DNA from: Moniliella sp. 'wahieum'
Taxonomy: Eukaryota
Length of the DNA stretch: 64,000 bases
Direction of reading: 5' to 3'
NCBI GenBank assembly: GCA_003971905.1
Contig: RSEE01000004.1
Span: 1,116,001 to 1,180,000 of the forward strand
A model generated the notes under the pieces. It did no database searches, had not been told where the DNA came from, and saw only the letters and a list, made by a program, of their open reading frames with translations. Position 1 is the first letter of the stretch, and every line of letters starts with the position of its first letter. Below are positions 1-56,718 of the stretch, one piece after another. Both the position numbers and the translations under genes were made by a program.

Positions 1-3000
1 GTGATACTGGTGATGTGTGGCCAGCGGGGTAGCAGCCGGTAGAGGGGGGAAGCTAGAGAAGGAGGGCCAGGCCCCAGGGTGCCTTACGTTACGTTACGCC
101 ACTGCATGTGACGCGTGACGCCTCTGCTGTCTGGTGTTCGGGGCACACTAGGGCACGTTTCCAGCGATCGACCGGGTACAGATATTCATACACTGGCCCT
201 GCGCCGTCTACGCGTTGCGCTTGAAGCTCGCGTGAAGCTTGAAGCTGGCTTGAAGATCCACTCGACCAATCTCTTTCCCAGGAGCATCATGCATCATTAT
301 GCCGGTGGGGCGTTCGGTGGAAATGACCCTCTGTAGCAGAGTGGGGGCCCACATCCATCACATGCATCACACACGTCAGATCATCGATTGCTTGTTACAT
401 GTTACATGTCGCTCTCCCCGCACAGCTGCCAGTCGCTCGTCGCTCGCTCGTCGGGCCTGCACAGGCACCTAATGCCTAACCCTGTCTAACCTAGGGCCTA
501 ATATCGCGGCAAGCAAGCATTGCAGTAGGATCGACCAGGATCGACCCCTCCGACCCACCCAGTACCCAGTCCTCACCAGCTCGCCCCAGCCACTCTGTAT
601 CCAATCCCGCAGTACTTCTCCAACGGCGTACTCAGCGTAATACACTCAGCGTTAACCTCACAGCGACTCAGCATTCGGATCTCAGATCTCAAATCGGGCG
701 AATGTGTCTCATGTCCACATGCCCCCCACTGGAGCCCTATGCGAGCCATAAAATAGGACAGGCGCCCCATGCCGTGCCATTTGCTAGCTGCCAGACTATA
801 GCCGAACCTATTAGCACGGAGCCAGTTTGCTCCCGACGCCGTCGAATGATTAAGGAGGGTGCTTGCACAGCAGTATACAGAGCATCCCAGTCGCTGATTG
901 GGTCGAATGATTATCGATTATCTCGATTCATCGATTAATGGGCTCCACAGAGGCCCCTGAGGCTCAGGTGCTCGGGGCTGTCCAGGCCTGCCTGCGCGAG
1001 CGTCGAACCCGGACCTAAGCCTCCCCGGGACGTTTGTTGTTCTCCAGGTTCACAAGACCCCACACTATCGGGCTGCCTCTGTTGTCCCAATCTCCAACAG
1101 GCAGGCCCACCCCGACACAGCCGTGTCCTGAGTTTCTCTATAGCTGCCACCAACGCACTCTTACTTCCTCCCCTCATCGGCCTCATCCCTCCGGCCAGTT
1201 CGCCAATCCTGGCTCATTATTCTTTGCTCAGCGCTCGGCGCTCGACCTCAGCCGTTCGTCCCCCCGCCCGCTCTCTCGGTGTCAACGCCCTGCGACCCTG
1301 TGTGCGCGCCCCTTGCGCATCCACGGCCCCTCCGCCCCACTTCGTTTTGTAAATCCGCTGAGTGCCCCCCCGCCAACATCCGCCCCTGAGTGCAAGCCAC
1401 GCTTCCCCCGTGCGATGGCCCACAAGCTTATTCCCCCGCCGCAAGCTCCGCCGCGTCCCGGCCGACTCGAAGGTGGCTGACCTGCCTGCTGAGTCTCAGC
1501 AACATGGCACTGCCCCGTCCCCGTCGGAACAACACTCTCTTGCTCCTTCTAGCCCTCGATTTCTGCATCACACGAACCGACCACTGGACTGATGAGTACA
1601 TCCCAGGATCTCCTGCCCCCTGCCCGTGCCCAGCCCTCTCCGGCCGGGCATCCTTCTCCCCGGAGACTGTCGAATCTGCAACGGGAGCAGCGAGAGCGGC
1701 GAGAGCAGCTGATGCTCTTCCGCAATGCAGCGCTCCATCCCTCCCTCACCGGAAACAGCGAGGAGATGGGCGCGGTGGGACCATGCACTCTCTCAACGTG
1801 CTCAACTATCGGGACCCCCTGTTGAAGAGCAGATGTGTGCGTCTCACTCTGGTGCCTTTGAGTGGAGCGAGTGGGCGGCTGCACGCCTCAACCTCCCGCT
1901 TCCAGCGCCTCACCGACACATCAATCCTCCCATTCCAATTTGCTCGCCTCCCTCGACGCGCACCAGGATCCAGGGCGGAAGCCGCGGCGCCACGGCCGTT
2001 CCTGCTGCCTCCAGGTCCAGTTTCTCCTTCGCTCGTTCCTCTCCTCGTCTCTCAGTGACCGGGTCCACGTCGTCAGCGCTGGATTCACGCTCGTCCTCGC
2101 GGCCCTTACTTTTGCTTCCCCCTGTTCGCAGGGCCGGAGTTCAAGCCCAAGCCCAAGCCCAGCGACCAGCTTGGCTTCTTTCTCGGGCACGTTGCGCCCC
2201 CGCCGCCAAAGGCGGAGCGCAGCTTGTTCGCCCGAATCGGCTTGGCTTCCCGTCGCCGCGCTTCTGCGCCTGACTCGCCTCCCCATAAGCACCTGGATCC
2301 ACAGATGGGATCAGCGATCTCCCGGTAGACACTTTGTTTCTGCCCGCTCCGCCAGCTTGTCCATGCCGGCACTGATGGAGCATGGCGACCTGCCTCCCCC
2401 CTACGAGGAAATTGAACCATCCGCCTAGTCGATTTGCCTCTGCTTTTGTTGTGACTGTCGTTTATCATACTCGTACCTCTAGGTACCGACCCCACCGCCC
2501 TGAGCTCATCATCATTTCCACTTCCCCTCGCCCCAATCCTCCATCGACGACGTGCGTGCCTATCCCCGCCATCCCCGAACTCTGAAAGTGGACCGTTGTA
2601 CACTCTCCTTGTTCATGAACTGCTACGATTTTTCGGGTCGATCCACTTGGTGTGTCTTATTGACGGCAAAGGTGTAGTCAATGGATAGGCAAAACAGAAA
2701 AGAGGTATATAGTTTGCTTCGGCTTGACCGGCTGGGCCTTGAACCCCTGTCGCGCCGGATACCGGACAATGTAGTGTTGAACCCAGCCGCGAATCCACCG
2801 GTACCATGCCGTGGTCTCTCCTTTCGTTTGGGAAGGTTAGTAACTTTTCCCAGGGAATGTAAGGAAGGACGACAATCATTAATCATTGCTCATCAGCGCT
2901 GGTTGAATGAAGGATGAAGCTTGAAACTTCAAGAGCGATCTAATGTAGTTCGTCTCCCCCCCCTCCCACACACACGCCTCAAGCAGTTGATCGCCAGCAC

Positions 3001-3232
3001 TAACGTACCTGATAATCGGAACCTGTTCTACCTAATCGTTCATTCCCTGCAACTGTGATCATTCTTCTTCTTTCTCGTCCGCCTCAAGACGACGGTACGA
3101 GACTGATGATATGGATAGTGCGGGCATCATGGTATTGGTTGGCAGCGCATCCTCTAGGCCATGGCATGACGACACGGGGCGAGTAGACCAAGTCACTAGA
3201 GATGGCTCAGGTAAAATGCGAGCGTTGATACT

Positions 3233-4485
3233 CTATGTTGGACCGAAGCTCATCAATGTCAATTTCCCAAACAACGCTTCATCTTCGGAAATGAGCCGTT
3301 CAGCCTCGAGTGCAGCCATACTGAGAAGGCAAAGGAGGTTAGTAGGCGAGTTGGACAGCACAGCGAAGCGATCGAGAAACGTACCATCCTGAGCCAGCGC
3401 TGGTAATCGCTTGCCGATACCCCGATCCTGGACATCCCCGGCGGCAAGAATCCCTTGACCGAGGTCTGCGTCTTGCCCGGCGTGTGAGGATGTATCCGTC
3501 CTCGTCGCAATCCACTTGGCCACGGACGAGATCGGTGGCTGGGCGTGCCCCACCGCATAGAACAGACCAGCAGCGGGATCACGCTCTCCTGGCCAGTCTG
3601 GTTATTGCGCACCTTGACCGCCCGCAACAAGTCCTCGTCGCCCTGGGCCTCAATCACCTCCGTCTCGTACCATACCTCAATCGCTGCCTGGGCGGCCAAC
3701 CGTTTAAACAGGATAGGGCTGGCCCGCATCTGAGGTTTGCGCACCAAGACAATCACTTTAGCCGCATACCTGGTCAAGTACAACGCTTCTTCGCATGCAC
3801 TGCTCCCGCCTCCAATCACGACAACCGTCTGACCACGAAAGATGGGTGCCCCCCATCGCACACAGCGCACGTCGAAATACCGATTGCCAGTACAATTCCT
3901 CGCAGGCAAGTGGAGCCGCTTGGCAGAGGCGCCGTTGCATAAATCAGGGTGTCGGCCAGTTCATAATCATCCTCGTCAATCGACTCTGGGGGAGGGATGG
4001 GATGGGCGCAAGGGCAACCTCGAACGGGTCACGTCGATCGCGCCAGAACCGAAAGGGCGGGAAGAGAGGTCGACCCTGGCAATGCGTCGGAAATGATGGT
4101 CGTACCAAACCGGAGGGCTGGGCACGGAACTTTTCCACAATGGCCTGCCCCGAGATGCCCTCTGGGAAGCGGGAAAGTTGCCAACGTCCGAGGTGGTGGT
4201 GAGGTCGCCCCCGGCCTGGGGCACTTCGGGCGCAGCATGGCGCGACGCATCCCCATGGTTCGTATCATCCAAGCCCAGCTCAGAGGGAAGACGTGGGCCT
4301 TCAAAAAGAAGGGGTGCAGGTTGGCCCGAGCCAAGTAGATGGCAGCCGTGTGCCCGCCGGGCCAGAGCCGACGATGACGGCGCTGTGCCGCGGGCGGGTC
4401 GCGGCGGGAGGGGGAGAGAGAGGATGAGGGAGGATGAGGGTCCGAGGGGGGCGCCGAGCTGCGGCCATGATGCGGTCATGCTCAC
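3233..4485 (-). CDS. TRR1: Thioredoxin reductase (low-Mr type), frameshifted in the assembly, with a short 3' intron (~3321-3384)
   Basis: Motifs across frames: VIVGSGPAG, LARANLHP, GGDLTTTSDVGNFP, YWQ-GISTCAVCDG active site, VVVIGGGSSACEEALYLT, AAGDVQD, and GSGC|MAALEAER joined over a gtacgt...ctaac...cag intron. Confidence 0.92.
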
Positions 4486-4940
4486 CCAGGGAGCGTGGGA
4501 GGGGGGGGGGGATGGGATGGGAGAAGGAAGAGTGGGTGTGTCTGTATCCGACTACGCTCGAAGCAGGCCGACACCGATGCTTCATCTTCCTCACTGCGCC
4601 TACGCGGACATACGCCCTTTCACCCTGGCCTACATGGCGTGACGTAAAGGACCCGTCCGTTGCAATTTCACTGGGACACCACAGACACCTCGAGTCAAGC
4701 TAGTCAACCCTAACCCCCACACTCAGGTAACCCTATGGCCATTCAACAATATTCATGGCCAACCTCGCTCCTCGCCCTTCAAGCTAGCTTCAAGCTTCAA
4801 GCTGCAAGCCTTAACCCTAAGCTTGAAATGACATCATTGAGTAATTCCTGTGATGTCTTTCTGCTTGGATCGGCTCGCCACTGCCTTCACAACTTAATTC
4901 CTCTCGACCACCATTTCCATTTGCTGCTTTCTGAACTCAT

Positions 4941-4980: not shown

Positions 4981-5226
4981 ACAGTCTGAATAGGGATTCC
5001 CTCTCCCTTCCTCTCTTCCCATCTCTTTCCCCACTTACTTACTACTCGCACACCTATTATAACTCGAGCCCGCCCACGCCCGAATTGCCCTTTCCATACC
5101 TCCCTCAGCATCCCATCCGTTCTCATCCTCCCACTGAACATCACTCCCAATGCCCCCCCCTGGTTTAACTGCCTTCTTCCTTCCATTCCTCGGAATGACG
5201 AAGAGGCCCAAAACGCTGTCAACAGC

Positions 5227-6418
5227 GTGTCGGCCGTCCTCGACGTCTTTCAAGATCACATTGCCCTTATTACCCCCTCTCAACAGAGCAGTAGTCAGTC
5301 TCACCTCATCTCCAAAGCAGCCCTGGTTTCTTGCCAAGAAGATGTCGATCGCCTAGGCTGTTTCCGACTCGAAAGCGATCCTAGTGCCCATGCGTGTGCC
5401 CTGGAGAAAGTCCAAACCATACGCGCTATATTCGGGATCTGTTGACAATTCTTCTGAATCGTTTTGCCGATCCAGACTGGTGGGAACATTGGGGACAGCT
5501 AAAAGATGGACCCATTTCTCCCACTCCTGACATGAACGCCAATCTGGACTCTTCCTCCGCGCTTAACGATGCGGATCACATTCGGGACGCTATCAGCCTG
5601 TTACGCCGCTACAGAGACTTTGGCATCCAAGGTATGGATCTGGTACATATTGCCCATGACCGCTTCCCTAATAAAATGTCGCTTTCTCTGCGCTGGACGA
5701 CGTCATTTGCACCAGACCTGCCTCTCAAGACAACTCTCCTTTTTATTTCAAAATGATTGATCAAATGTGCACGACCGTACCTGCAAAGCATATGTTGACC
5801 AGGGGGAAGGCTTTCTGGCCCTGGTTCCAGGCTCTGATGGATCGTCGGGTGTCAGTTATTCATCCCCACGCCAGAGGTACGGTCGAACTTGGCCAGAAAT
5901 ACGAGCACTACAACGAGACTCTGGATCACCAGTTGGTTGAGGTCCTCGTATCTCACATTGCCTTTGATCTATTCCATCCTATATACTCAACTGCGCGTGC
6001 ACAATTGGCTTCCGAGTATTTCATATCGGCTCAACTTCACTACGGCTATCTCACCGTCTCCCAGAAGAACGGCATGATTTTCAAGCTTCAGAAAATCCGC
6101 CGCGGTCAATGGGATGGCGCTACTCTTCTCGCACATCACAAGAAACTTGCCGCACGCTGGGAGCTCGCGACGGGAGGATCGCTTGACCCAACGCTCCTTA
6201 AGCTTTTTCTTCTTGGAGGCGTGTTGGATGACGACTTTTGCAATCAACACCAGAATGATGATTACGACACTGTGCAGTTTCATGTCAAACAATTACCGCC
6301 CTCTCCGGCTGAGAGTCTGGGCGTTGTTTATTGCTTTCGTATCGGCGGTTCATCTGCATCTGGTCCTCGATCATTCCCTTGGTTCAACGGCCGAACGACT
6401 TTCATCGCCCACTCATAA
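5227..6418 (+). mobile_element. Orphan Ty1/Copia gag-like (UBN2-like) coding region; no pol visible
   Basis: ORF 5753-6418 has a helical gag-like pattern (FWPWFQALM...KLQKIRRGQWDGATLLAHHKKLAARWELATGGSLDPTLLKLFLLGGVLDDDF); upstream ORFs 5227/5394 appear contiguous via frameshifts. Recognised by eye only. Confidence 0.45.
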
Positions 6419-7136
6419 TCTGTCTATACCACGACCGTTTTTCGGTCATCTCGCAAAATGGGGAGATGGACAACGAGATGAGTGTGACGCCACACTGGTA
6501 TAGTCGGCGCCGGTAGCCCAAGCCCGAAACCTTTTTCGGTTCATTCATTCCAATATTCCTTCCTGTGCAGGGCAGGAATCCTCTCTAGCCTCTGTAGCTC
6601 ATGTTATGCAAAACACCATCAACTGCCTGCTCCCTGGCCTCCTATAGAGAGGCCCTATTTATTAGCTACATGAGATGTCGTACGAGCTGGATTTCTGTGA
6701 AAAGAAAGCGATCCGTGTCTACAAACCAGGACGCAGGCCACCTCACCAAAAAAGACCAACTCGGAGAGCGCCTGAGAGATCCCAGAAGTTTTAAAGCGGC
6801 CTATTCCATGATGTGCGTGAGGGTGTCGGCACTACAGAGTTGATTGTTCATCACCACTCAGGTGAACAGCATCTTTTACAGATGTGTTCATCAATCCGGT
6901 AAGCAGGCCGAAACTGTCTCTTACCCTCACATGCTCTGCGCGTACTCCAGACTCCACACAAACATTCCTCTCTTCGATAATGCTTTATTCGTTTTTCGTT
7001 CCCCATCACGGTCCATATGGTGGCCGCCACAGTGTCTCTTTCGTTCCCCCTTTACCCGTCGTGGGCGTGTTGACATATACGGCCATTTACGACCCCAAAA
7101 GACACTTCCATCACCTTTGACCCAGGCTGAATTTCT

Positions 7137-7376
7137 GCATCCATATCATTGACAGAGCTTAAGGCTGTGGAACGGAGAAACGCTACGCCTAAACGGACCC
7201 ATTCATCTTGCGTGTGCTGCCTGATATATTAACACCAACCCCGTTTGAGGAACCAGAGGAATCGCCAGGGGATCAGGATCCTCTGGTGCCCGCCATCCCT
7301 TCCATACCCGAGATAGCGCGTGTGTAGATACGGATGAACGTGGTAGACATCAGAGCGAGGAACCATTTCCATTGAG
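7137..7376 (+). repeat. Dispersed ~240-bp repeat, copy 1
   Basis: Shares blocks TCATTGACAGAGCTTAAGGCTG, AACGCTACG, TCATCTTG, GGAACCAG, ATCAGGA and CGGATGAACGTGG-GACATC-GAGCGAGGAACCATTTCCA-TGAG with the reverse complement of 11959-12188, and the first blocks with that of 16745-16924. Confidence 0.9.
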
Positions 7377-7864
7377 CATCAATCTTTGAATCAATCCATA
7401 ATCGCTTAAACGACCTATACACGATCGTTCACTTATTCGCCACACTCTTCACTTCACGGACTGTGTGTGTGCCGACGACAGACAATGATGAGACTCTGCA
7501 TTAGCTTGGAGACACGGGTGTCGGTGCCGCGACACGCCACAGGAGGCAGTGTGGACGATGCTAACCTACATATACTGTGCCTCTTATAACCTCTTAGATT
7601 ATCTTTTAGATAGCTTTTTCAACTTTAACCTTGCTTCAAGCCTCTCAAGAGGGCCCCACTGCCTCGTTCGACCCTTTCGAGGACACGGCCTCGGGAAATT
7701 TCTGTCGGGAGAGGCACCCTGCAGGCACCGTTTTTGTTGCGTTGCACCATGTGCGCGAGAGAGTCTATTGGTTCCAGCATCTGAAACGCTGACTTATCTG
7801 TTTGACGTGAGGTGCATGCTACAGGTAATCTCACCAGTGACATGATTTGCCACATGTCACACAG

Positions 7865-7888
7865 TGACTAGTGACATGTGACATGTCA
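7865..7888. repeat. 7-bp-period palindrome array
   Basis: TGA CTAG TGA CATG TGA CATG TCA. Confidence 0.8.
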
Positions 7889-9348
7889 TACATGCGACAT
7901 CGCTCCTGGCGACCCGCAACGCCTGCAACGCCTCAGGCGCCTGACCGGCCTGAGCGTTTAAGCCCACAGTGGCGTTGCACAGAGCTCACATCTGAGGTAC
8001 ACGTCACACAGGTATTTGTCTGTTAAGCGTCACGCGCGACGCGTCAAGCTCGTCAAGCTTCAAGAACTTGATTGCATTACCATATGCAACACTCAGCCCA
8101 CAGTCAATAATCGTACTCAATACTAATACTATCTTAAGTATCATGCCGATCTATGTACATCATGAAAATCCCTCGGCTGATCCATCCCTCCGCTCAGCCA
8201 TTGAATCATTATTCTTGTTTTTTCTGTCCGAAAAAGCACTGATTTTGGTTATTGGGTTAGTTGGGTACCCCTTTCATATAGTGTGGAGAATAACGCGCAC
8301 ACGGCATCCTTCCTCGCCCCGGGGTCTGGCATATGTGCGCGATGAAAATATAAAAACGGAGGGGAGGGATTAGCTTATCGGGACAATGGCAGAAGAATCA
8401 TCTCGCCGTGTTTTTGCGAACACCTATAGGAGTTTTGTCGCGCTCGGTGGCGCCGTTAGCGCGTCAGCGTTCTTTTTGGCCATACGCGCACGACGCATCT
8501 ATGCCTGTAATTCTGGGTGTTCTAAAGCTGCTGACGCAGCGCTGACGGTCGGACGCGGTCCAGACCGTCTACCTTTAACGAGAATCAATAATTCCATTGT
8601 GGTCACCGGAATGTATTATGGGAGGGGAGCATTCAATATTCTCAAGGGTACCCCCCGCCCGTTCGCACATGTATATACTCAATCCTTTTATCGACCTTAT
8701 CATTAAAAACGTTAAACATATACTAACCTCCTTTTTCAACGTTCATCCACTTTGCGCAACTGGTTAGTAGTATAGTAGTAAAGTCCCTGTCACCGGGATA
8801 ATGCGTAGCCCCCACACAGATCTGATATACAGTTGTCACCACACCAAAATGAGAGAGGTAATCAAAAGCCGTAAGGCTCTGCGACATGTGAGTGTCTCCC
8901 ACTCCCCCCCCCCCCAACAAAAGTCCTACTATATTGTACTATAAATAGCGCCAGCAGCGCGCATGGAGAGAGACGAATGAGACCGTAGATGGTGACATAC
9001 AGTTTTACCCCATCAGGAGTCGCCTGCGGTGTGACCTAATAACTGAACGAAGCGTCTGAGAGAGATGTCATATAGTGTCAAACTCTTCAGGAGGAAACAG
9101 GGAGGATGTGGACAGAAATTCAAACGGTTGGGTGTGTGTGAGGAGAGGTTTACACGGTCAATTCGAGCAAGGGAGGGGGACGGGTACGGGGAATAGCGTG
9201 CGGTGTGACGACGACTGGATATATGGCGCAAACACATAAAGGAATCACGGTGGTAAAATGGCCATAAGCAAAGCACTAAGAAAGATATTAAGTGTGGGAG
9301 TCAAAGGCATTAGGAGGTTGAATCGGCGAAAGCAAAAGGAGCTCAAGT

Positions 9349-10723
9349 TTATTCTGTTTCGTCCAATCCCCCGCCTTGGCCGCAAGGGGCTGAAGCGGGA
9401 GCACACGGCGGCAGCGACAGCATCTCCCTGAGCATGTCATAGTCTTCCTGCTCTGGTGCGGTGGTAGGGTCGTGACCATAAAAGGACCAGTTACATGGGA
9501 ATAGCGGGTTGTTCGTAAAAATAGCCTCCTGGGCCTGGCCGGTAATATTGGCGTCGTTCGTCATGCGGTGGGGGATGACACCGAGAGTGTGTTGAAGTCT
9601 TGGTCGATCGGAGAATCCAGTAGGGAGACAAGATTCACCCCGCAGCCGCGAACATGTCTGCAAATGACGTATCTTCAACGCTACTTGCCTGTTGGAAGGT
9701 TGGAGTAGATGTGTCGTGGACCAGGCCCAAGCCTGGCCCTGTTTCGTTCCTGCCGGCATTGATGCCAGGATGGTTTACAATTTGGATTTTGAAGAATGCT
9801 TGGAGTCGGAACTGGAGGGAAAAAGGGATCCACATTGGTGAGGATGGGCCACGGAACAGAGGGCTGGGTGTTGGGGAGAGCATCATAGGTTCCATGGGAA
9901 ATAAGGGTGAGTTCTCTAATGGAGTAGTGGAAGAGCTGAAAGGGAACGTGGAGCCGGCTCTGCATGGGGTGAAAATGACAAAGTGGATGCCGGAAAGTGG
10001 GCGCATGCGGACCCTGCTGAGTCATGAGTGGCTTGACAAAGGCTGGGATGGGCTGCATTTCAGGCTGAGATACAGGAATATGCTTCTTTTGCATTTCCTG
10101 TTGCGTTTTCTGCCGTCGAGCATCACGGTTGCGCTGCCGTGCCTCCAGCCGGGCAATCTTCCTCTGCCCCTTCAAGCCGTGCACGGCGCATCCGTCTGGT
10201 TTCCCCCCGGGCCTGCTGGACCTTTTCCAAGGCAGCCCTATCGTGTCCTAGCTGGCGCAGAGCCAAGTCGGCATAAGCTAGTGTCCGTGTCTCCAGTGAT
10301 GAGTCGGGTGAAGCGCCTGGTGGAACTTAGCTGACTTTACTGATGAGGGGCTCTTGCGTGTAGAACGCGAGGATTTGGGTGCTTGAACTTCCAGTTGGGA
10401 TAGAGGCGCGCGTGCTCCCTCCCCTTTTCTTCAGCCCGAGCATGCCACTCACGCCGCTCGGGGGCTGGAAGATTGTGCCATACCGCTCTCAGGATCTGAG
10501 ATGCGTGACTCATGTGGGTGACTTGAGGCAACTCATCCGACTTAAGGAACCAGGAGCGGAAGAGCATGAAGGCGTTGGGAGGTCGTTTGATGTGCCCCGG
10601 CTCCCGTTTCTTCTTCGCATGGGATTTCTTGTGGACAGTAGACCCCCCCTTCTTGCAGGTCTCCAATGCTTTGCTGGGTGATGTATGAGAAATCAGTGTC
10701 TTATCGGAGCTGGTACTGCACAC
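9349..10723 (-). CDS. MATA/SOX-type HMG-box transcription factor with a low-complexity C-terminal region (boundaries uncertain; 5' part may extend to ~11129)
   Basis: SHAKKKREPGHIKRPPNAFMLFRS...SQILRAVWHNLPAPERREWHARAEEKGREHARLYPNWKF is a canonical HMG box; downstream minus-strand ORFs 9349-10184 likely continue it via frameshifts or introns. Confidence 0.85.
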
Positions 10724-11958
10724 AGACCCGCGCCCAAGCCAGGCGTTTTCTCCTTCCCCATAATCGCGCTGCAGAGTATGGATCGTCAGTATTTTCTTTC
10801 GTTGGCTGAATCAGGAGAGGATGCCCACTTACTATGAGCGCGGGTGACCAAGACGGAGAAAAGTTTAGAGTCGACGCGTGGGCCTTTGGGCAGCCCGTCC
10901 ACAACCGTACATGGAGGGGACGGCATGATAATGATGGGCGTCGAAACGAGAAGAGGAATGGGTTGAATAGGGTGTTGATGGCGGAAGGAGGGGAAGAAGG
11001 AGATGTTGATAGTGGGGTGCGCTTCGGCAGCAAGCGACATATATATATGCCGTGATGATACGGATCGGCTGGGAGACCATCCCACCGTCCGAGAGTCACC
11101 GTAGTAACCCCCTTTACGCTATCATCCATTATTTCTGACGGCCTGGCTGTGTGTTATATACATGTTATAGGACAGAGGTGTCGCAACGGGACGGGAGAAT
11201 ATGGAGATGCCGTGCACAACGCCAGAACGTATAGCATATCGCACCCTACACAGACCCTGGCTCCGGCCCAGGGACCATCAACAGTTGCCACGCATGCGTG
11301 TGTAGTATATTGCGGGGAAAGCATGCACACTGACAACAGGGAGCAAGGCACACACACTGTGATCGATGATTGGTTTTGGCGGGGGTTGTCGGCGCGCGTC
11401 CTCCACACAAATACTGTTTAGTAGCCTCGGGCCCTGAGGGAGATCCGAGGGCTTGAGGCCCTGATACCTAACGCTTATAGGCCTGGGCGCCTGAGCGGCC
11501 TGAGCGCCTGAGCAACCTGAACCCCAGAAGGCTCAGCTGGCCAGGAAAGGGACTTCGTGCATCGCCAGAAGGGACTCCGGGGGTGCCGAAAAGTGTGAGA
11601 GTATAACATAAAAAATCACCGATAACGCGCTCCCGTTTTACATTTTGCTCCTGCTGAGGCTGACGCGCTGACACGTCGCGGTGACACACACCAGTCAACG
11701 TCTAGTTGCATTTCCTCATACCGCTCTTGTTGCAATATGCCGCCAAATCGGTTGGCAATGCCGGCATAAATCTGTGGCTGCAAACCGTTTTTTTCCTCCG
11801 ACGTGATATTATTAGTGCTGTAATTTAACATATAAGCCTACCTACCCTGTGGCAAGCGCCCGGTTCTGGGTCTAACAAGTTAAAAGGGGCGGGGTCATGC
11901 TATTAGGTCAGAACTTGGGAACGACCTCTCTGTTTTATAAGGAGTTGGCTACCAAGTC

Positions 11959-12188
11959 TCAGTGGAAATGGTTCCTCGCTCGGATGTCAACCACGTTCAT
12001 CCGTGTCCATACGCGCTTCCTAGGGTACGGGACCGGATGGCGAGAGCCGGAGGGTCCTGATATCCTGGCGATACCCCTGGTTCCTTGACTTAGTGGCGCT
12101 TCCAAGTAACCCCCGCAAGATGACGGTTCGGTTTAGACGTAGCGTTCCCCCTGTCCCAGCCTTAAGCTCTGTCAATGAAATGGACGCG
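11959..12188 (-). repeat. Dispersed ~240-bp repeat, copy 2 (inverted relative to copy 1)
   Basis: ctcagtggaaatggttcctcgctcggatgtcaaccacgttcatccg...cagccttaagctctgtcaatga is a diverged reverse complement of copy 1. Confidence 0.9.
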
Positions 12189-12236
12189 GAGTAGACGATG
12201 TAACGGGTGGACGAGCCGGGAAAGTGGTCATGTGGT

Positions 12237-12633: not shown

Positions 12634-12706
12634 TTGAAACGTTGAACGTCAACTGACCAATGACCAGTGACCGCTGACCGCTGACCGCTGACCGGTGACC
12701 GTTGAA
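12634..12706. repeat. 7-bp-period TGA-N4 array
   Basis: TGA CCAA TGA CCAG TGA CCGC TGA CCGC TGA CCGC TGA CCGG TGA CCGT TGA. Confidence 0.85.
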
Positions 12707-12967
12707 CCTGTGCGTGCGAGCAGGACATGGGCGGACAAATTGCAGCCCCTAGCACGCGTCCATGGCACCCAGGTACAAAGCAGCAGCGCTGAAGCGCTGA
12801 AGCGCACTGAAGGAATGTAGCCCAAGAACCGCATGGGTTGAATCTCAGAAGGACTGCTGTTTCGCCGATTCCGTCCAGGAACGGCGTCCCTGTTACGCGA
12901 GTTGCCGAACTGTCTCTCCGCCCTGTGGCTCTGCCTTACAAATGGGACAGCCCTCTCGTTCAGCATA

Positions 12968-13243
12968 GGCGTCACGCGTCAGCGCCACTGAGGCCCTTGA
13001 ATGAAGCTTGAAGCTTCAACTTGAAGCTTGAAGCTTGAAGGATGATCGATGATGCATGATGTTGATGATGCAGATGCATGATGCATGATGCATGATGCAT
13101 GACATGTGACATGTGACACGTGACGCGTGGACGTCACACGTGTCAAACCTTGGATCTTGGGCCAGAGTCTCACGCTCACTGAGCTCAGGCTCAGTACTCA
13201 GTGCTGGTACTGATTGAGCGAGCACTGAGGCGCTGAGCTCCAT
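12968..13243. repeat. Long compound 7-bp-period palindrome array upstream of the symporter gene
   Basis: TGA AGCT TGA AGCT TGA AGGA TGA TCGA TGA TGCA ... (TGA TGCA)n TGA CATG TGA CATG TGA CACG TGA CGCG, then TCA GTAC TCA. Confidence 0.9.
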
Positions 13244-13659
13244 TATCGGTTAATGATTGCCTGCATTAATCAAGTTTACGTTTATATTAATCGGTTTAAA
13301 TTTAAATTCATTTAAATTTAAAATTTAATCCTACTCGATATCCACACGAATTTCCCGCACAGTGCCCCTCCGCTGGACTGACGGCGTGTGGCCTGTGGCA
13401 TGTGCCCCCTGTTCCTGTTTGCGGCGGGCTGAACGTTGAATCGAAGCCGCATGGCGCCTGCCTCCATCCCAGGCATTGGGCCGAGATGCTGAGAGAAACA
13501 GCGTACAAAATTCACCGCCACCGTTATCCCTTCCTTTTCTCCACCGCCTACGCCTTTGCCTCTCCCCATCGCCTCCTTCGCCCACTCTTCTTCCTGCCTC
13601 CCAGCAACCGCCAACCGCCAACCACCCCCCTCACGACTGCGTGCACGCGCTTCGCCTTC

Positions 13660-41768: not shown

Positions 41769-42374
41769 TCCCCGTTCCTGGTCTTTTCTCCGCCATTGGG
41801 TGGTCGGCAGTGGCAGCTGCCCCTCTGTGTGTGGTAGTGGCAAGATTGCCTTGTATGACCATAGCCCATTTGCAACGCCTGTTGATTAACGATGAACAAG
41901 CGCAACATGATGCCGAAAGAGGTCCAGATGGAGAAAACAGGTGTTGGTAGAGGCGGCAACAATGGAAATCAGTATCCCTATAGTCCCGGCCGTGCGCGTT
42001 CTCAGATCTCAGCATCTCAGCACACGCATAACAGAACCAGAAACGCGTCATAGCTCGGTCACTTATTAGCTTCAGTGCCTTCAGCACACCCATCCGCTGA
42101 GAAATGGCGTTGACGTTGATGGTAGCGCGGATGACGTGCTTGGAGCTGGCTATATAAGCTAAGCTAATTATCAGCGCGCGCCGCTGTGAGATCTGAGAAT
42201 GAGATCCCAGGCACTCCAAATCACCGATCGTCACCTGCTTGAACGGATCGGCAAGATATAAGCGCGCATACTCATCGATGATCCCAAAGTATCCGCCCCA
42301 TCGGCTTCTTTTCTAGTGTCTCTTCTCCGTCTTCCCGTTTCTTGTCTCCACCACTCTGCGTCGCACCCATCACC

Positions 42375-43855
42375 ATGGTTGCCTCTCTCGGTATTGCTCG
42401 CAACGCTGCCCGTCTGCGCTCATCCGGCCGCCCGGCCGGGAGTGCCTGCTGCCCAGCGGACTCTCGCTGCACTCGTCACTGCCCCTCGGCTCTTGCCTAC
42501 GCCGCCGCGTCGAGCGCCGGGGTCTGGCCACCAGCTCTGAAGCAATTGCTGCAGCTAACTGTGACGCCACTGGATCCAAGAAGGCTACAAAGTCGTCGTG
42601 GTTGGCGGTGTACCGCCGGGCAAGATGTAGCCCACATCCGTCCCGGACCCAGACTTTGCTGACTCACCGCTTCGATTCTGGTGATTGATCCGGCCGAGTT
42701 TCACGATTAGCATGGCTGACCTTGGTTGGAGGTGGCGTCCGTACGGCACAACAGGGCCGGCCGGCGTAACACCAAGGACTTGGCTCAGGGAAAGGGATGA
42801 TTGAGTTCCTGTCCGATGCCGTCACCACCTTTCAGCCCGAGGGAACACAGTTCAAACCAAAAGCGGCCTGACGATCGAATATGACCAGCTGGTTGTTGCG
42901 CCTGGGATCAAGACAAACTGGGAGGGCATCGAGGGGTTGCCGGAGGCATTGGCCTCCCCCGAATCTGGGGTGGTCAGTATCTACGGCTATGAAACGACCC
43001 AAAAGGTGTTCCCGGCTATCCAGGCTTTGACCAAGGGCCATGCTATCTTTACTCAGCCTGCGGGTGTAATCAAGTGCGCAGGTGCGCCGCAAAAGATTAT
43101 GTGGATGGCGTACCATGAGTGGAAGAAGCTGGGCCGTCTATCCCAAGACGATCCTAGCAAAGGTGTGCAGGTGAGCTTCTTGACTGGCATGCCCACCATG
43201 TTTTCAGTGCCCGAATACAGCGCAACGCTGGACCAACTCCGTCAGCAGCGCCACGTCGAAGGTCTGTTCAAGACCAACTTGATCAAGATTGACCCCAAGA
43301 CCAAGGTGGCGACCTTTGCTCAGGAAGGCAAGCCCGACCTAGAGCGCGAGTATGACCTGCTCCACGTCTCACCCCCTATGGGACCGCTTGACTTCATCAA
43401 AAACTCGCCTCTGGCCGCTGAACAGGGGATGATTTGTTGACGTGGACCAGGCTACGACCCAGCACAAAAAATACAAGAACGTCTGGTCTCTTGGCGACTC
43501 CTCTTCTTTGCCCACCTCCAAGACGACGGCTGCCATTACAGCTCAGGCGCCTGTGACAGTAGCCAACTTACTCTACAGTGTGTCCAACCCAGGCGCGACG
43601 GAGCTGCCCGCAGCATACGACGGCTACACTTCTTGCCCGCTCATCACGCAGTACGGCAAGGTTCTTTTGGCCGAGTTTAAGTATGGTGGGAAGCCCAAGG
43701 AGACCTTTGGTCGGTTTGTGGACCAAAAGCAGCCTCACTGGCTCTTCTGGTTGCTCAAGCGGGACTTTTTCCCGCGGGTTTACTATTCCTCCATGGTCAA
43801 GGGCACCTGGGCTGGTTCGAAAGGCTGGCTGAACCCTAAGTCGTTGCTGCCCTAG
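42375..43855 (+). CDS. Mitochondrial sulfide:quinone oxidoreductase (Hmt2/SQOR-like)
   Basis: YKVVVVGGG, YDQLVVAPG, IKCAGAPQKIMW, YDLLHVSPPMGP, WSLGDSSSLPTSKT, YDGYTSCPLIT, LAEFKYGG. Confidence 0.93.
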
Positions 43856-44084: not shown

Positions 44085-44210
44085 TGAACGTGAGTTCATC
44101 GTTCAACGTTCAACTCTGTTTAACCTGACAATGCCCAAACGAATCTCCGTTAAGGGCTGAGCCTCAGCGCCCTCAGTGCCTCAGCAGGCCTCAGCCTCAG
44201 GCCGGTCTCA
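44085..44210. repeat. AACGTT and AGGCCT/AGCGCT-type TCA-phased array
   Basis: cgttcaacgttcaac; gctgagcctcagcgccctcagtgcctcagcaggcctcagcctcagg. Confidence 0.7.
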
Positions 44211-45356: not shown

Positions 45357-46073
45357 GGAGATCTTAGGGTCCCAGCACTCGAGTTGACTGATCTCACTCG
45401 GGTTGACTGATGTTAGCGACTACGAGACTGTATCCGATCTTATTGGGATGCATGACCTACTTTCGCTTCAAGCATAGCTCCTGCTGCATCAGGCGTCGTT
45501 GCACCATCGCGTCTTGCCCACAGATCCCCTGGGCACATATACAACTTCAGACAAGGCGTGAAGGAAAAGTGTTGAGCCACAAGTCTTCAAGCATCGTCGA
45601 AGGGAAGGAACAGGAAGAGAGAAGGGAGATGGAGCGAGCAGGGGGCGCCCTGCGAGCGGAACTCTTTCGACCGGCTAAGCGAGAGCGTCACCGATCCACT
45701 GAGGGCCGAGCAGGGGAAGCCTAGCACTACCCCCCAACAGAGGCAAGTGGAGGCTGCGAAGGAAGTAAGAATATCATCCGATAGCACTTCCTCGTATACA
45801 ATGGGAGAAGGTTTGGATATGGATAATGATACGAGAGACTACCGATTATGGATATCGTTGTTCTAAAATGCAACACGTAGCTGAAGAAGCCACAGGAGAA
45901 CGAAAAATGGTTTACACTTAACGTGCTAGTGCTCTCCTGACAAAAATTCGCTTCGGGAAAGTATGGACAGGGATTGCTACAAGCTTGACTGTCGATGGGT
46001 CTGATCAGATCCATGACCGAAAGTAGCAAGCGAATCGTAATAGACAAAAGAGAGAGCGGGAGCTAAGGGCGAT

Positions 46074-47191: not shown

Positions 47192-47473
47192 TGCCCTGGT
47201 GCCTGGCTGGGATGTTCGGTGTCACGCGTGTCACAGGCTGCTGATGGCGCTGATGGTGCATGATGGTGCTCGCTCACCGCAAGGCTGAGCCTGAGCCACA
47301 GGGATGATTCATCCGTGGCGTGAGGCGCTGAGGCCCAGCGCTCAGCCTGAGCGTCATCGCGCTCTCGATTCCATCGCGCCCCGCACCCGATGATGCGGGC
47401 GGCATTGTTCCAATGTTCAATTCGATTCGCGTTGCGCATTGGGACAGCGCACCCGGAGAGGTCCTCGTGGCCA

Positions 47474-47580
47474 TCATGCATCATGCATCATGCACGAGAA
47501 GTGCTGTGACATGTGACATGTGAGAGAATCACTGCTATCCACTCGCACTTGATGGGTCACCGGTCAGCCTGACCGGTCAG
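47474..47580. repeat. Compound heptamer palindrome array
   Basis: TCA TGCA TCA TGCA TCA TGCA; TGA CATG TGA CATG TGA; TCA CCGG TCA GCC TGA CCGG TCA. Confidence 0.85.
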
Positions 47581-50500: not shown

Positions 50501-50735
50501 CTATGGCACTGCATGAGTCTGACATCTCCGTCCATCTTTCTGTTTTCACCATCAGTCTGCGACTGCATCTGCACACAAGACTGAAGCATAAAGCTTGAAC
50601 AACTTGAACAGCATTTATTGACCCCAGCTCGACAATACAACATATGATATGCTAGCTGATAACATGTTGTAACACTTCAAGGGATCTTCAAGCTTCATAC
50701 TGAAGCTTTATATCAAACACGTTCACAACTTTTGA

Positions 50736-51584
50736 CCTATAATAGCAGGTGCAGCCCACGGACGTTATGTCTACAGGACGCTATGTCTACAGGACACTCT
50801 GTCAACAGGACACTCCGTCAACAGGACGCTATATGTCAACAGGACGCTAGGGAACGGTGGTTGCCGTGGCTCCGGTGAACGATCACACAGTTGGACAATG
50901 GAATGGTCGGCAGCAGAACGGTTGTTAAGGTATCAACGCTGTCCCATAGAACGGTGGCCAAAAAAAGGTGACAACGACGGAATGGTGGCGATGGTTGGGA
51001 CGACGGAACGGTGGCGAAAGTGGCGACGACGGACGGTTGCTACGGTGGCCCATCCTACCCAAGGAGAGAATGCCAGGGTGGCTCGATGACGAAGCAACAG
51101 CCAAGAGCAGGCGCCTCACTTCCATCGGCAACCCAGCCCTCGCTCTCCATCTTCTGATATGTCAAGTACGGAATGCACTCTGAGCCTGGGCAGCCTTTCG
51201 CCCACCCGATTCTCTGCGTGACACGCCAGCCACGCCTTTCTGTTCTGACTCCCTTGTTTTCCTGCTGACAACGGAACGGCATGCTACGCCGCACTGAAGA
51301 TGATGGAATGTTAACCTATGTCGCATGTTGGAGTCTCTGTTAACAATGGAATGGTGGACAGTGGGGATGGTGGGGAAAGAGGCCTATGGGAATGGTGGAC
51401 CAACAGGGGGTAAGGGGCATATGCATATGAAAGGGTGTGGACTATAGGGGTTAAAGATGGCCGCGTGTGTTCGTAACCAATTAACACGGAGGAAAGCTGG
51501 GGCGAAGCCCCAGCCCTTCAATACAGACGCACGGTAAAAGCATCAGGAGTACGCATACGGGCCATAGGCCCGGTGGTCCCCTAG
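50736..51584 (+). mobile_element. Non-autonomous Helitron-like element (5' end uncertain)
   Basis: 3' hairpin CGGGCC-ATA-GGCCCG (51558-51572), 8 nt, then CTAG followed by T; second hairpin gctggggc-gaa-gccccagc (51496-51514); internal 16-bp tandem array and repeated GGAAYGGTGG. Confidence 0.65.
50761..50848. repeat. 16-bp minisatellite, ~5 copies
   Basis: gacgttatgtctacag / gacgctatgtctacag / gacactctgtcaacag / gacactccgtcaacag / gacgctatatgtcaacag. Confidence 0.9.
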
Positions 51585-53794
51585 TGGCGAGATATCTCAC
51601 ATTGGTTGAGCGCTCTCTCAGACTCACAGATCTCAGATCTCAAAAACAGATCTCATTAATCATTTCCAATTCCTGTTGCTCGTCCGCCTCACTCTCTTCC
51701 TTGGTTACCCTCTCGCCTTCGCTATGTGTCTTCTTTCTGCTCCTGCTTCTCTCCCGCGTTTATTGTGCTACACCGGGGCCTTGTCGTTACTGTTGTTCTT
51801 TTCTTAATCGCCCCCGACGGATCAGTTTTGTTGCGTGACGCGTGATGAGAGCGGGAGATGTCCTGTCACATGCATGCCAATGTCACATGTCCCATGTCTC
51901 TGCATGCCACATGGTACTCGACTACAAAGTCTCTCACTTGGGACATCCTTCTGTTACATGCATGCATCATCGACATCGATATCGATCCTCCTTCGCTTCT
52001 TGCACTTCATGCAATGCACATGGTGCCATTGGCGCCTCGGTCTCAGATCTCAGCGTCAACATCACCGGCATCACCAACCTCTTGGCATGAGCATGAGGGC
52101 TGGCACCGAGAGCACACCATATATAGCCAGGAAAACACAGATATGTTCAATGGTGGGCACCCACTCACTATACTACACGTACTACACGTACCACCCTGTC
52201 ACTATATCATTAGGCTTTGAGGGAAAAAACATGATTCACCACGGAACATCAATCAAGGGCACCACCACTTTGGTCATCGGATCATCTCATTTAGTCTTTA
52301 AAAACTCCACACTCTCTTGCGGCCGCGGTTGTCCACACTTTGATCTACATCGATGATCACGTTCATCACGCGTATCGCCGATACCGTGTAGGCCAGACCG
52401 TAGGTCTCGGGCTCAGATCTCATGCGCTCATGCCCCCCTCAGGACCAAGCAATACAAGTCAAGATTCAATAGCGGCTGCGTCAGACCTTCCTATTACCTC
52501 CATCTCCAAGGCTGGTATTGTGGAGCTAACAGGTAATTGCTAGAATGGCCCTTTGAATATTTTAAACTTTGAAAACAGACCGAGCAGCGTTGATTTCATG
52601 TTTCTCCCCGGTATTTTAATCGGGGCGAAAAAGCAATCTTGCGCCTGGAACAGGATCGCTGGGAGCCGATGGCCCGACACAGGCGCTGTGCAGATCCCGC
52701 CGAAGAAACTAGCCCGCCTTGGCCGCGCGTACCGAAGCAGTGCCCCCGTGCGGCTGTATGTGGGATGGGCGAGCGCGAACACCTGGATTCTTGGCTGTGT
52801 CGCTAGTCCAGTGCGGTGCGCGGGGAAAGGGAGCAGCCACTTTGGCGCCAACTGCATGCCGATCCAAATGTGCCGGCGCAAAGCGTGCCAATGGCCTTGG
52901 GCTCAGGGGGAGACTCAACTCAGACTGAGTCACTGCGTGCGAAGTGGGACATGCCCACCCTTGTGGGTTTGCAAGGACTGGCCGATATTACTTGCTTCAG
53001 GCCTAGCTTCTCTGGCGTTTTCAGCATGTCTTTCACCACCCAAAGTTGCAACGTGGATGGCACTCAAGCTCAAGAGTGCGCTAGTGCTTACGTTGGGTTG
53101 GTCTGCGTAGGCGCGAGAGGAATGGTTTGGATATTGTTCAATGCTGAAATGTTCAACTTTCACGTTCGTTCAGCGCTGGTGTTCATCACGCGTCACGTTC
53201 ATCGATCATCGATCATCGCCGACGGAGAGCACTGTGATTATTCGCGCAGACATTTGCGTGCTTACATGCATTACACAACGTTGCAACCCGAAAAGCAGGG
53301 CAAGAAACGGGCGGCAGAAGGTTGCAGAAGGCCAGCGCAGAACGTCGAAGGTGTCTGCGCGAGTGCGGGTGCAACGTACAGGAGGCGATCGTGCTTCGCA
53401 GGCGCGCGCGGGGGCTGGCCGTTACAAATCAATCGCCGGTTCCCAGGACGGAAGGGCAGAAAGTTGGATGGGCCCTGGAGGGGCTGCTGATGCGCTGGGG
53501 CGAGAGCTGCGCGGTGCTGGGGTGATATAAAACAAGCGGAGTCGGAAGCCCGACGTGGTTTCCAAAAGGAGCGTATACTGCGCTAGTGCTGCAGTTGCGG
53601 TTGAACAGCACGGCGCTTGCCCACGCGCGCACGGCCGGTACGGGTGGTGAGGCCTGAGGCTGGGGGCCTGTCCCGGTTGGTTTGGGGGCTTCCCAGGGTG
53701 CTTAGCTGCCGTGAGGCACTGGAGCGCTGCCGCGCCCAGGCACTCAGGCGTCACGCGTCAAGCCTCAGACTGCCGATACGCGTTAGAACTGGCG

Positions 53795-53829
53795 TCACAT
53801 GTCACATGTCACACGTCACGCGTCAGGCC
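53795..53829. repeat. TCA-phased heptamer palindrome array upstream of the GT32 gene
   Basis: TCA CATG TCA CATG TCA CACG TCA CGCG TCA GGCC. Confidence 0.88.
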
Positions 53830-54145: not shown

Positions 54146-56082
54146 ATGCCGCCATCCTCGTCGCCAGCGCCGGACTATGTCCCGCTGCAGCGCGCCTCCC
54201 GCTCTACCGCCTCCAGCCACGCATCCTCCCCTTCCTCCTACACCATCCTCTCTACCGGCGTGTCCCATGGAACTGCCTACGCCCCCTCGGAGCTTGCCGG
54301 CGCCGCTGCCGCTGCCAAGGCCGACGACACTGTCGGTGAGGACAACTACGATGAGGAGGACTACGAGTTCGACGGTGACAACAGTTCATGGCCAAACATG
54401 CCATCGACTCAGCCGGCCAATCATCCTGGTGGCCATTCGCCTTGCTCCAGCGTCGTGGCCGTGGTGGACGTGATATTCCCCTGCCGCAGACTGTACCCCT
54501 CCTCGGGGTCTCACGAGACCACAGCGAGAAGCCTATCTCGTCCGTTCGCCTTGCCTGGGGTCGCGTAGGCAACCGCCTGCCTCGCGGAGTCCGCCAGGGC
54601 GTAGCCTTTCTCTTCAACCCCCGCCACGCCCGCCACCTGTTCATGGCCGTTGGAGTGCTGCTAATGCTTACCCTCGTGGGATTCGGCATCAATACCCAGC
54701 TCGTCCGCCCGCCTCCCTACCAGCTGGTGCCAAGAGAGGACTATGCTTCCGTCCTCTCCAAGTTGTGAAAGAGCAGAACTTAACTGCCCTGATCCCTCTT
54801 GCTGATTCAGAGACAGGCACGGGCACTATGACGGACACCATTCCGAGCAGATTGGTCTGCTCCAATCCCGCTTGGAGGCCCGGAGTCTTTTGGCTCGATG
54901 CGCTGGCAGCCAACACACGACTCTGGTCCCCCGTCCTCTCCCCTCGACAGGCCCCCTTCGCACATCCCTTCTACGATGTACAGCTCCGACGCGCCCCGCT
55001 TCCTGCCAACGAGTCAGCTGCCTGGCGCGCAAGTTGGGAGAAGTTTGGCTTCTCTCCCGTCACTTTCCTCACTGACATGGAAGCGGATAAGTTTGTCGAC
55101 GAAGACTATGGCCCAGACCGATTGGGCGGTTCCCAGCCCAAGTCCTTGCTAGACAGGACGCGAACGGCGGTGCAAAAGGCATGGTACGCTCTCCCACGGG
55201 GTGTCATGCGGGCCGACTTTATGCGTTACCTCCTCCTGCTCTCCCGTGGAGGGACATGGTCGGATATGGACGTGGATCCGATGGGCAACCTCACCGACTG
55301 ACCAAGCCCGATGCTCGTTGGATTCCTGTTCCCCGCATCTCAAAGCTGGCCGCTTCGAACGACCCCACTTGCGCTCCGTTCCTGACCGATCAAGGGAATA
55401 TCCGTCTTCCTCCTCTCGAGCCAGTACGGTTGGTGGTCGGACTGGAGTGCGAGCCATGGCAGTACATGCAGCATAGCGACCGCGCCTGGCTCGAATCCGC
55501 CCGCATCCTGGCAATGCCTCGGCACCGGGAGGTGCAATTTACGCAGTGGACCTTGCATGGTGCGCCGGGCCACCCAGTGTTAGGATGTGCTGCGGCGTCT
55601 GCTGGCATCGGACAAGCAGTTCGAAGACTATGTCGCGCACCACACGCCGTTCCACAAGAACGCCATCCATCCTTGGACCAACATTGATGCTGCGCGCAAA
55701 TGGATTCTCGCCGACTCGACGCCCGCGTACCCGGTTGGCCCGAGTGAGGACGACAGTGCCAGCTGGTTGCACTGGCGCATCTGGCCTTGGCGCTGGGCGT
55801 GGCCGCGCTGGGGCTGGCACCCACTTTCGGTGGAAGAATGGACCGGACCAGCGCTGTGGACCGACGCGGTTTACCTACCTCAATGCTGTGGCCGGTTTGC
55901 ACCCTCGCGATCTGTATGGGCTCAACGAGGCGGTCCAAGTAGCGGAGTGATTGTGGCTCCCAACTCGTGGTTTGCTCCTCCGCGAGACGACTTGGGCCAA
56001 GCCAAGGTCCTCCACAACTTCCGTGGCTCTTGGAAGCACGGGCCGACATTCAGGGCGCAGGAGGAAAAGGCTGGGGATGTAA
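54146..56082 (+). CDS. Glycosyltransferase family 32 (Och1/Hoc1-like alpha-1,6-mannosyltransferase), type II membrane protein
   Basis: TM segment LFMAVGVLLMLTLVGFGI; MRADFMRYLLLLSRGGTWSDMDV (DxD), LVVGLECE, QFTQWT..APGHPVL, WTGPALWTDAV, HNFRGSWK. Confidence 0.9.
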
Positions 56083-56718
56083 TCACATCAGCTGGGCCCT
56101 GGGCGCTTTTCCCCTCGTTTTCCATAGTTTCATCTCATGATTGCTGTGCTGCTGTGCGCTGTTCCCTGTCCCTCCTTCTCCTCTCGATCTCATCGATCTC
56201 AAAGCTGATGCTCTTGCCGCTCTCCTCAGTGGCAAGGGCAGGCGGCAGCCCCACCAGCCGATGTGCCCTTCCTGTAACGTTTTTGCCCACACCATTCCCT
56301 GGAAGCAATGCCTGTCCTGGGTCTGATCGCTCGTGGCGCGTGTCTGGCGCTACCCCATAGCGTTGCGTCTTGCTGGGAGGGCCTCAAGCCAGGGCAATTG
56401 CGGAGGATGATGCATGTGATGAATGATACTAGCTATGATGAAGCCTTGCAATCGAGTGGCAGCGCGTCATGGTGAAATCAAACATGGCAGGAGTCATGCT
56501 GGTCACGTGCCTTCGTCGCGACGGCGCAGAGCAGAGCGGCAGACACGGCGCAGACAACACGGCGGGCTGGCTGCCTGGCCGCTCGCTTCGCCACCACCCC
56601 TGCGCCCCCGCATTTAGTGCAGCCGCCGCGCCCCAGCCGATCCCAGCGGCCTCTGACAGCACTCTACGCGTGTCTGTGCGGCTGCTGCCCCTGCCCACCA
56701 TTCGCACGCGCGCCCGCG

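Follow-up and report, generated by a model that had tools for sequence, protein, structure and literature searches.

Palindromic units in the intergenic DNA of Moniliella sp. 'wahieum' are probably excision footprints of a DNA element with a 7-bp target

Introduction

Why should the spacers between genes carry, at locus after locus, short palindromes that differ in sequence and agree in symmetry and spacing? The question is raised by a stretch of 64,000 nucleotides from Moniliella sp. 'wahieum' (GenBank assembly GCA_003971905.1, contig RSEE01000004.1, positions 1,116,001 to 1,180,000; G000:C4:1116001-1180000 in our labels), referred to here as the window, in an assembly of 69.5 Mb and 223 contigs. 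An earlier note on this DNA had described clusters of palindromes spaced by seven nucleotides, lying upstream of genes and avoiding coding sequence, and had proposed that they belong to a genome-wide system such as a promoter or chromatin mark. We analyzed the clusters in the window (on contig C4), in further contigs (C17, C32, C34, C44 and C62) and in fetched loci (L006, L007, L062, L092, L098 and L151). We argue that each unit is probably the footprint that a cut-and-paste DNA element left at a donor site, an element whose target is 7 bp long and centred on TNA and whose excision follows flank-hairpin chemistry like that of RAG, Transib or EnSpm.

Results and Discussion

A 4-bp palindrome between two copies of the same TNA

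The heptamer-palindrome clusters are real, as at least one strict unit was present in 20 of the 20 intervals listed in the earlier note; 29 more window units, counting 8- and 9-nt variants, lie outside those intervals. Palindromic hexamers of the form A....T number 305 in the window against 195 expected, without enrichment of palindromes that start with C, G or T, and pairs of them peak at a lag of 7 (n = 31), 14 (n = 14) and 21 (n = 11), all other lags up to 40 yielding 0 to 7. The A....T form of the cores is as first described, but it follows from a different unit, in which a T-N-A triplet, a 4-bp palindrome and the same T-N-A succeed one another. The 83 10-mers with the same TNA on both sides comprised 37 TGA..TGA, 33 TCA..TCA, 7 TAA..TAA and 6 TTA..TTA, and mixed TGA/TCA forms numbered 9. 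Non-genic window DNA holds 73 strict period-7 units (shuffled mean 0.2, maximum 2 in 200 shuffles), with 7 period-8 and 11 period-9 variants besides. In 231 units outside arrays, the target showed no preference beyond T-N-A, N being G or C in 78%.

The pattern extends genome-wide, with 2457 matches to a single pattern for a three-TSA array and 0 for its reversed control. The sampled density was approximately 0.45 clusters per kb (245 in 549 kb), or approximately 30,000 clusters if extrapolated to the assembly. All 16 of the 16 possible cores are present, in agreement with the view that loci use different cores and do not repeat a single element. Each core is templated by the flank and varies with it; what defines the units is their symmetry and spacing, not one particular sequence. 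The units are not a sequencing artefact, being common to homologous positions of two haplotype contigs and avoiding coding DNA.

A duplication that ends at 7 bp and joints that end at 4 nt

The palindrome is copied from its flank, so that ab-TNA-cd becomes ab-TNA-cd-d'c'-TNA-cd or its mirror form. In isolated units the period-7 match continues for two more bases on one side only, and the event is therefore a 5-bp direct copy plus two inverted bases. Duplications with two inverted nucleotides anchored at T-N-A numbered 96 in the window versus 0.3 in shuffled DNA, and 311 versus 1.1 in 37 other 10-kb stretches. The lengths of copies and the joints were counted on both strands of 56 sequences (613 kb), overlapping units within arrays included. 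With TNA placed 2 nt from the palindrome centre, direct copies of 4, 5, 6, 7 and 8 bp occurred 87, 530, 68, 51 and 1 times, compared with 11, 3, 1, 0 and 0 times after shuffling, and the 7 copies of 9 bp were mostly in arrays that keep both arms. Because copy length stops at 7 bp, the duplicated site is exactly ab-TNA-cd; inverted arms seldom exceed 2 nt.

We described each joint as (i,k), the number of bases retained of c-d-d'-c' and of b'-a'-a-b, respectively, and divided ambiguous joints fractionally. The dominant classes were (4,0) and (0,4), with 140 and 151 joints, followed by (2,2) with 54, (1,4) with 27, (4,2) with 21, (2,4) with 17, (4,1) with 16 and (4,4) with 4. Joints are confined to at most 4 nt per end, no cell beyond 4 exceeding 7, and this holds when palindromic sites are left out. 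The 4-nt limit points to 4-nt overhangs, because hairpins opened 2 nt 3' of the tip would yield exactly these; Artemis, for comparison, opens hairpins mainly at +2 (PMC2175297). The units thus show the marks of flank-hairpin footprints: inserted bases that are the reverse complement of the flank, a duplication with a fixed maximum, and an end-joining spectrum bounded by the length of the overhang.

Units segregate between haplotypes

At least three homologous copies of the region are present in the assembly. Contigs C32 and C44 form a pair approximately 95% identical to each other (aligned stretches C32:234001-301000 and C44:76001-140000), and the window copy is approximately 80% identical to them in coding DNA, the syntenic homologues of its genes on C32 and C44 ranging from about 70 to 86%. 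These copies may represent a dikaryon together with a second species, or else a hybrid. Identity within the C32/C44 and C17/C62 pairs was 89-97%, and 125.4 kb of aligned pairs were compared for indels. The haplotype indels of 7 nt number 32, of which 9 match the unit exactly, as in CC TCA TG versus CC TCA TG CA TCA TG, and 8 of these 9 are not pure tandem copies; the remainder comprised 3 cases of duplication plus inversion at near-TNA sites and 20 others. A full TNA-centred 7-bp copy with two inverted bases accounts for 3 of 11 indels of 9 nt, and 5 of 14 indels of 8 nt fit a 6-bp copy with two inverted bases, some of them also being pure tandem copies. Units segregate between haplotypes; therefore, the process or its products are recent. 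Across 30 alignments of a young long terminal repeat (LTR) family (854-bp repeat), 0 indels obeyed the rule, a weak hint that silenced repeats are avoided.

Excision footprints and the search for their agent

An element of the kind we propose would cut ab-TNA-cd with a stagger of 7 nt as it inserts, for the most part into open intergenic DNA on the 5' side, and duplicate 7 bp. Its excision would nick exactly at the element ends and seal both flanks as hairpins, a RAG/Transib-type chemistry in keeping with the even palindrome, and a host nuclease would then open each hairpin 2 nt past the tip to leave the 4-nt 3' overhangs c-d-d'-c' and b'-a'-a-b. End joining that mostly retains one overhang and trims the other would give the products that we observe, TNA-cd-d'c'-TNA-cd or ab-TNA-b'a'-ab-TNA (+7 nt), and partial trimming would give the +6, +8, +9 and +11 variants. 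A scar that is hit again would present the same palindromic 4-mer in both overhangs, so annealing would add one exact unit per round; with one core grown per side, an array should hold at most two in-register cores. Ordinary slippage would lengthen some arrays further, and selection would purge scars from coding DNA. In keeping with the predicted limit, 12 of 57 arrays of at least two units have two cores and none has three; 7 of these 12 agree with the prediction at their two outer dinucleotides. Also in favour, the genome encodes Tnp2 (PF02992) genes and a DRMBL domain (SNM1/PSO2/Artemis family).

An EnSpm/CACTA-like transposase (CMCT clade) is the likeliest candidate for the agent. Searches with PF02992 (EnSpm Tnp2) and three protein queries returned only the orthologous C17/C62 locus and a locus on C34. 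Non-synonymous differences in the C17/C62 gene far exceed synonymous ones (77 versus 19 codons; 7 versus 16 in the neighbouring host gene), so the gene is decayed. Its domestication is ruled out by the same substitution pattern. The C34 gene (L007:3262-6872) is flanked by two host genes and comprises approximately 1200 codons, split over three long frames; it is single-copy in the assembly and is a candidate for a domesticated or recently immobilised transposase. A word-index search returned no longer relatives of the Tnp2 protein, and a HMMER search with it found 439 distant relatives, the named ones being from Tilletia and a plant. The heptamer of recombination signal sequences is CACAGTG; it was not enriched over three control 7-mers. 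In a side observation, a 27-nt two-core array and its left flank are identical at window positions 7857-7883 and at L007:2295-2321, beside the C34 gene, at otherwise unrelated loci.

Several results weigh against excision footprints or against this agent. The main gap is the ratio of scars to filled sites: in 0.98 Mb of partly redundant sequence from the assembly, we found no pair of TNA-centred 7-bp copies that encloses an element with inverted ends (one weak candidate, against 11 at non-TNA controls). The larger haplotype-specific insertions and multi-copy repeats that we inspected resemble retroelements or are deletions, and a 7-bp TNA duplication accompanies none of them; scans of the fetched sequence for inverted ends with duplications returned LTR-type ends with 5-bp duplications only. 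No inverted ends were detectable around either Tnp2-like locus, the gene on C17/C62 is decayed as described above, and the duplications described for the CMCT clade are 2-5 bp (PMC12730594) versus 7 bp here. Searches for hAT (PF05699) and for the KDZ domain of Kyakuja (PF18758) each gave 0 matches, with the controls likewise silent. At least one predicted end is missed in 5 of the 12 two-core arrays, 23 of the 32 7-nt indels lack an exact fit, and the indels lack outgroup polarity, slippage loss between 5-bp repeats yielding an identical pair. Conservative cut-and-paste transposition, for its part, lets footprints accumulate at low copy number.

A first alternative keeps the chemistry and dispenses with the mobile element. 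In it, TNA sites in open chromatin would be broken with a 7-nt stagger by a transposase-like nuclease, belonging to the host or domesticated, and the ends would be filled, hairpinned and rejoined. Frequent and still polymorphic scars without any filled site found would then be expected, and the position of both Tnp2-like genes between host genes, without inverted ends, would fit. The scheme requires fill-in followed by hairpin closure of blunt ends, however, and we know of no single enzyme that does both; moreover, the C17/C62 gene looks like a pseudogene and that on C34 has no second copy. We regard this alternative as unlikely.

Replication errors alone offer a second alternative, in which template switching or synthesis-dependent end joining forms a small palindrome that slippage then amplifies. 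Slippage is indeed active, as the length of non-palindromic 7-mer arrays is variable and the haplotypes differ at one AGCT array by 35 nt, or five units. Errors of this sort do not account for the constant 2-nt distance of TNA from the centre, for the 7-bp cut-off or for the one-sided 2-nt extensions, and the bases duplicated in isolated units are 5, not 7, which makes the proposal decidedly unlikely. We rejected separately the birth of a microsatellite by slippage, that is, by exact tandem copying of a whole unit, given the 8 of 9 rule-fitting indels that are not pure tandem copies and the one-sided extension.

Position of the units relative to genes

The avoidance of coding DNA was confirmed, with 0 of 47 clusters in the 20 gene spans, drawn by hand, that cover 48% of the window. 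Outside the window, in 549 kb with 138 genes called by our own codon hidden Markov model, 1 of 245 clusters lay inside predicted coding DNA, an exclusion that stop codons within the motif may inflate. Scarcity in coding DNA is expected from purifying selection against 7-nt frameshifts. The claim that the clusters lie upstream of genes held as a bias and not as a rule. Window clusters reach 2.24 per kb within 1 kb upstream of starts versus 0.17 per kb within 1 kb downstream of stops; outside the window, the bias is about twofold (0.87 per kb on the 5' side versus 0.43 per kb on the 3' side, p = 2e-5), with a peak 0.5-1 kb upstream. The scars of the window, which have no strand, and the genes that served as anchors are as follows.

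109 to 404: five scars with cores CGCG, AGCT, TGCA and CATG, among them a 9-nt variant at 358; the unnamed gene downstream of them is on the plus strand
682 to 920: two scars, TCA GATC TCA and TTA TCGA TTA
4777 to 4809: AGCT array upstream of thioredoxin reductase, containing TCA AGCT AGCT TCA, a period-11 joint with both inverted arms retained
7865 to 8062: two-core array ag TGA CTAG TGA CATG TGA ca, and 9-nt and 7-nt AGCT scars
11492 to 11511: 9-nt and 8-nt variants (7- and 6-bp duplication plus two inverted nucleotides), on the upstream side of the HMG-box gene
12635 to 13328: 16 scars, the densest cluster, upstream of the sodium:solute symporter, with in-register core switches from TCGA to TGCA and from TGCA to CATG
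16619 to 17053: three scars in the spacer between symporter and eIF4A
17524 to 18731, plus strand: eIF4A gene without scars, the anchor that located homologous contigs C32 and C44
21658 to 23975: 13 scars in the spacer that separates the P450 gene from a divergently oriented, hydrolase-like gene on the minus strand
28152 to 28161: TCA CTAG TCA scar, 98 bp upstream of ORM1
31814 to 33774: 11 scars upstream of alcohol dehydrogenase (ADH); homologous regions of C32 and C44 have 7 each, with other cores
35565 to 35651: four scars, CGCG and an AGCT array, in the spacer from ADH to the following plus-strand gene
39426 to 39437: 9-nt variant TGA AG ACGT TGA upstream of cytochrome P450 reductase (CPR)
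39533 to 43855, plus strand: CPR and sulfide:quinone oxidoreductase (SQR) genes, synteny anchors whose coding parts are without scars
42002 to 42196: two GATC scars upstream of SQR
44103 to 44112: TCA ACGT TCA scar
47242 to 47566: six scars, including a 9-nt variant of GCGC, arrays of TGCA and of CATG, and CCGG
50688 to 52073: six scars in a gene-poor long spacer
53186 to 53825: eight scars on the upstream side of the GT32-type glycosyltransferase, against 8 and 10 with other cores in the homologous regions

Orthologous 5' regions in the window, C32 and C44 carry 10, 7 and 7 units at ADH, 8, 8 and 10 at GT32, 1, 0 and 1 at CPR and 3, 0 and 0 at eIF4A, with cores and positions that differ between the window and C32/C44. 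Judged from these sequences, a similar load with different cores fits conserved accessibility, not a conserved code, and a conserved promoter code seems unlikely. The proposal of a functional genome-wide mark, such as a promoter or chromatin signature, is thus not supported, unlike the description of the pattern: the core is templated and takes all 16 values, units are present or absent between haplotypes approximately 95% identical, and orthologous promoters differ in cores and positions. Such features are those of a mutational process that leaves a scar where DNA is broken and rejoined. The twofold 5' bias with its upstream peak and the similar loads of orthologous promoters could be cited for a selected cis-regulatory or chromatin mark, in which TGA half-sites spaced by 7 bp would be recognized by a factor or through their structure. 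Such a mark would have to tolerate every core, a variable N, a core dictated by the flank, presence or absence between haplotypes and subgenomes with other cores and positions, and the bias is explicable by open-chromatin targeting; we consider it very improbable. Footprints of Tc1/mariner or Harbinger elements, a 3-bp TNA duplication enclosing the two terminal bases of each element end, would look outwardly alike (TNA-xy-y'x'-TNA) and are hardly credible, as their spacer should be family-constant and independent of the flank, whereas it is flank-templated here with 16 of 16 values.

Genes and other repeats of the region

Pfam supports window genes for thioredoxin reductase, an HMG box, a sodium:solute symporter, eIF4A, P450, ORMDL, uL13, ADH, CPR, a DXD glycosyltransferase and chitin synthase. 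For SQR, the best match among named relatives is from Tilletiaria anomala (63%), a genus of Exobasidiomycetes, which suggests a basidiomycete related to the smuts. Most genes of the window are frameshifted by indels of 1-3 nt, apparently of the kind left in an unpolished long-read assembly. The HMG-box gene (10340-10810) also has a weak match, under the cut-off, to the MAT alpha-1 HMG-box model (E 5e-6). It lies with the symporter gene between thioredoxin reductase and eIF4A, which are adjacent on C32 and C44. Frameshifted open frames at 4990-6418, between thioredoxin reductase and a repeat at 7134, have no Pfam match and are possibly a retroelement remnant. Two tRNA-like genes at 19250-19330 and 26673-26783 were not called by ARAGORN; the second is 90-92% conserved on C32/C44 and has an apparent intron.

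A multi-copy repeat of approximately 250 bp has three copies in the window (7134-7376, 11939-12190 and 16748-16924). Its 2-kb copy on C32 is a haplotype-specific insertion within a TA run, and the repeats resemble truncated ends from a non-LTR retroelement. Solo-LTR-like repeats lie at 22130-22347, 31847-32035 and 45545-45742, the family of the first occurring on C44 as a 223-bp haplotype-specific insertion with a 5-bp duplication. Degenerate tandem repeats of 16 and 26 bp at 50760-50849 and 50974-51037 bear no relation to the TNA rule. Between haplotypes, a segment of approximately 130 bp is inverted (L006:480-930 versus L062), adjoining a stretch found in one haplotype only, in a scar-bearing spacer. 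The C44 copy of CPR lacks 428 bp of coding sequence (L098 versus L092:4368-4797), through either a true deletion or an assembly error.

Relation to known systems and range

P nucleotides of V(D)J recombination, formed by RAG hairpins and Artemis (PMC2175297), and the flank-hairpin excision of Transib and MULE elements (PMC5499845) share with the units the even palindrome at the flank end, the 2-nt inverted arms and the variably trimmed 4-nt overhangs. In contrast to those systems, both ends here carry the same 7-bp site, which gives a direct-plus-inverted repeat, and the scars are genome-wide and heritable. Excision of Muta1 is mostly precise (PMC5499845). EnSpm shares catalytic motifs with Transib and RAG1 (PMC12730594), and Tnp2-like genes, the type of its clade (EnSpm/CACTA, Plavaka and ESTA), are, as noted, also in this genome. 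Footprints of Ac/Ds (hAT) in plants, budding yeast and Candida albicans resemble the units in their short deletions, P-nucleotide insertions and few dominant forms, but their palindrome is odd and centred on the complement of the border base (PMC5873905), whereas that of the scars is an even 4 bp. hAT duplications are, further, usually 8 bp rather than 7. Duplications of 7 bp are known for hAT7 of rusts and for Kyakuja in basidiomycetes, and no fungal element in the available text of PMC12730594 is described with a TNA-centred 7-bp target.

In Ustilago maydis, numerous 10-bp repeats were put forward as possible footprints (PMC4081816). They are likewise numerous, approximately 10 bp long, intergenic and from the smut lineage; the likeness is one of description only, and the core varies with the flank in our units. 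Neither the accessible part of PMC2874221, which holds nothing specific to the scar rule, nor the other literature consulted in part describes the TNA-palindrome rule, and an earlier account may exist in the primary papers on the Ustilago repeats or their supplements. The 7-bp cut-off, the joint spectrum and the haplotype indels were newly tested in the present analysis. A metagenome scan with one AGCT array matched at least 121 loci; among the matches listed, 116 had no strict unit of another core and 4 had one TTAA/AT-type unit. Metagenome contig L151, which carries a fungal-type, intron-containing STAND-TPR gene, has two units of other cores versus 0.02 in shuffled sequence. Its ACGT, GATC and AGCT units lie at 2470-2500, 3479-3488 and 3853-3883, upstream of that gene. 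The pattern may therefore not be confined to this lineage, and genes of the STAND-TPR kind may point to an agaric as the other fungus.

Biological meaning

It is conceivable, if doubtful, that a RAG-like nuclease derived from EnSpm, either domesticated or carried by a constantly hopping element with a copy number of about one, scars tens of thousands of sites in the intergenic DNA 5' of genes, that its self-cohesive palindromic ends make promoter tandem repeats without slippage, and that the same process explains the 10-bp repeats of U. maydis and occurs in other basidiomycetes. If the units are excision footprints, then products commonly seen singly in reporter assays would be one of the main sources of non-coding sequence, and one that still segregates. 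The scars would record the target length of the enzyme (7 bp), its preference for T-N-A with N mostly G or C, the type of hairpin and the position at which it is opened, and would amount to a genome-wide map of insertion sites as well as a route of microsatellite birth not begun by slippage. They would also predict a lineage of transposons whose chemistry is RAG-like and whose target is 7 bp, and the suggestion made for the Ustilago repeats would become testable.

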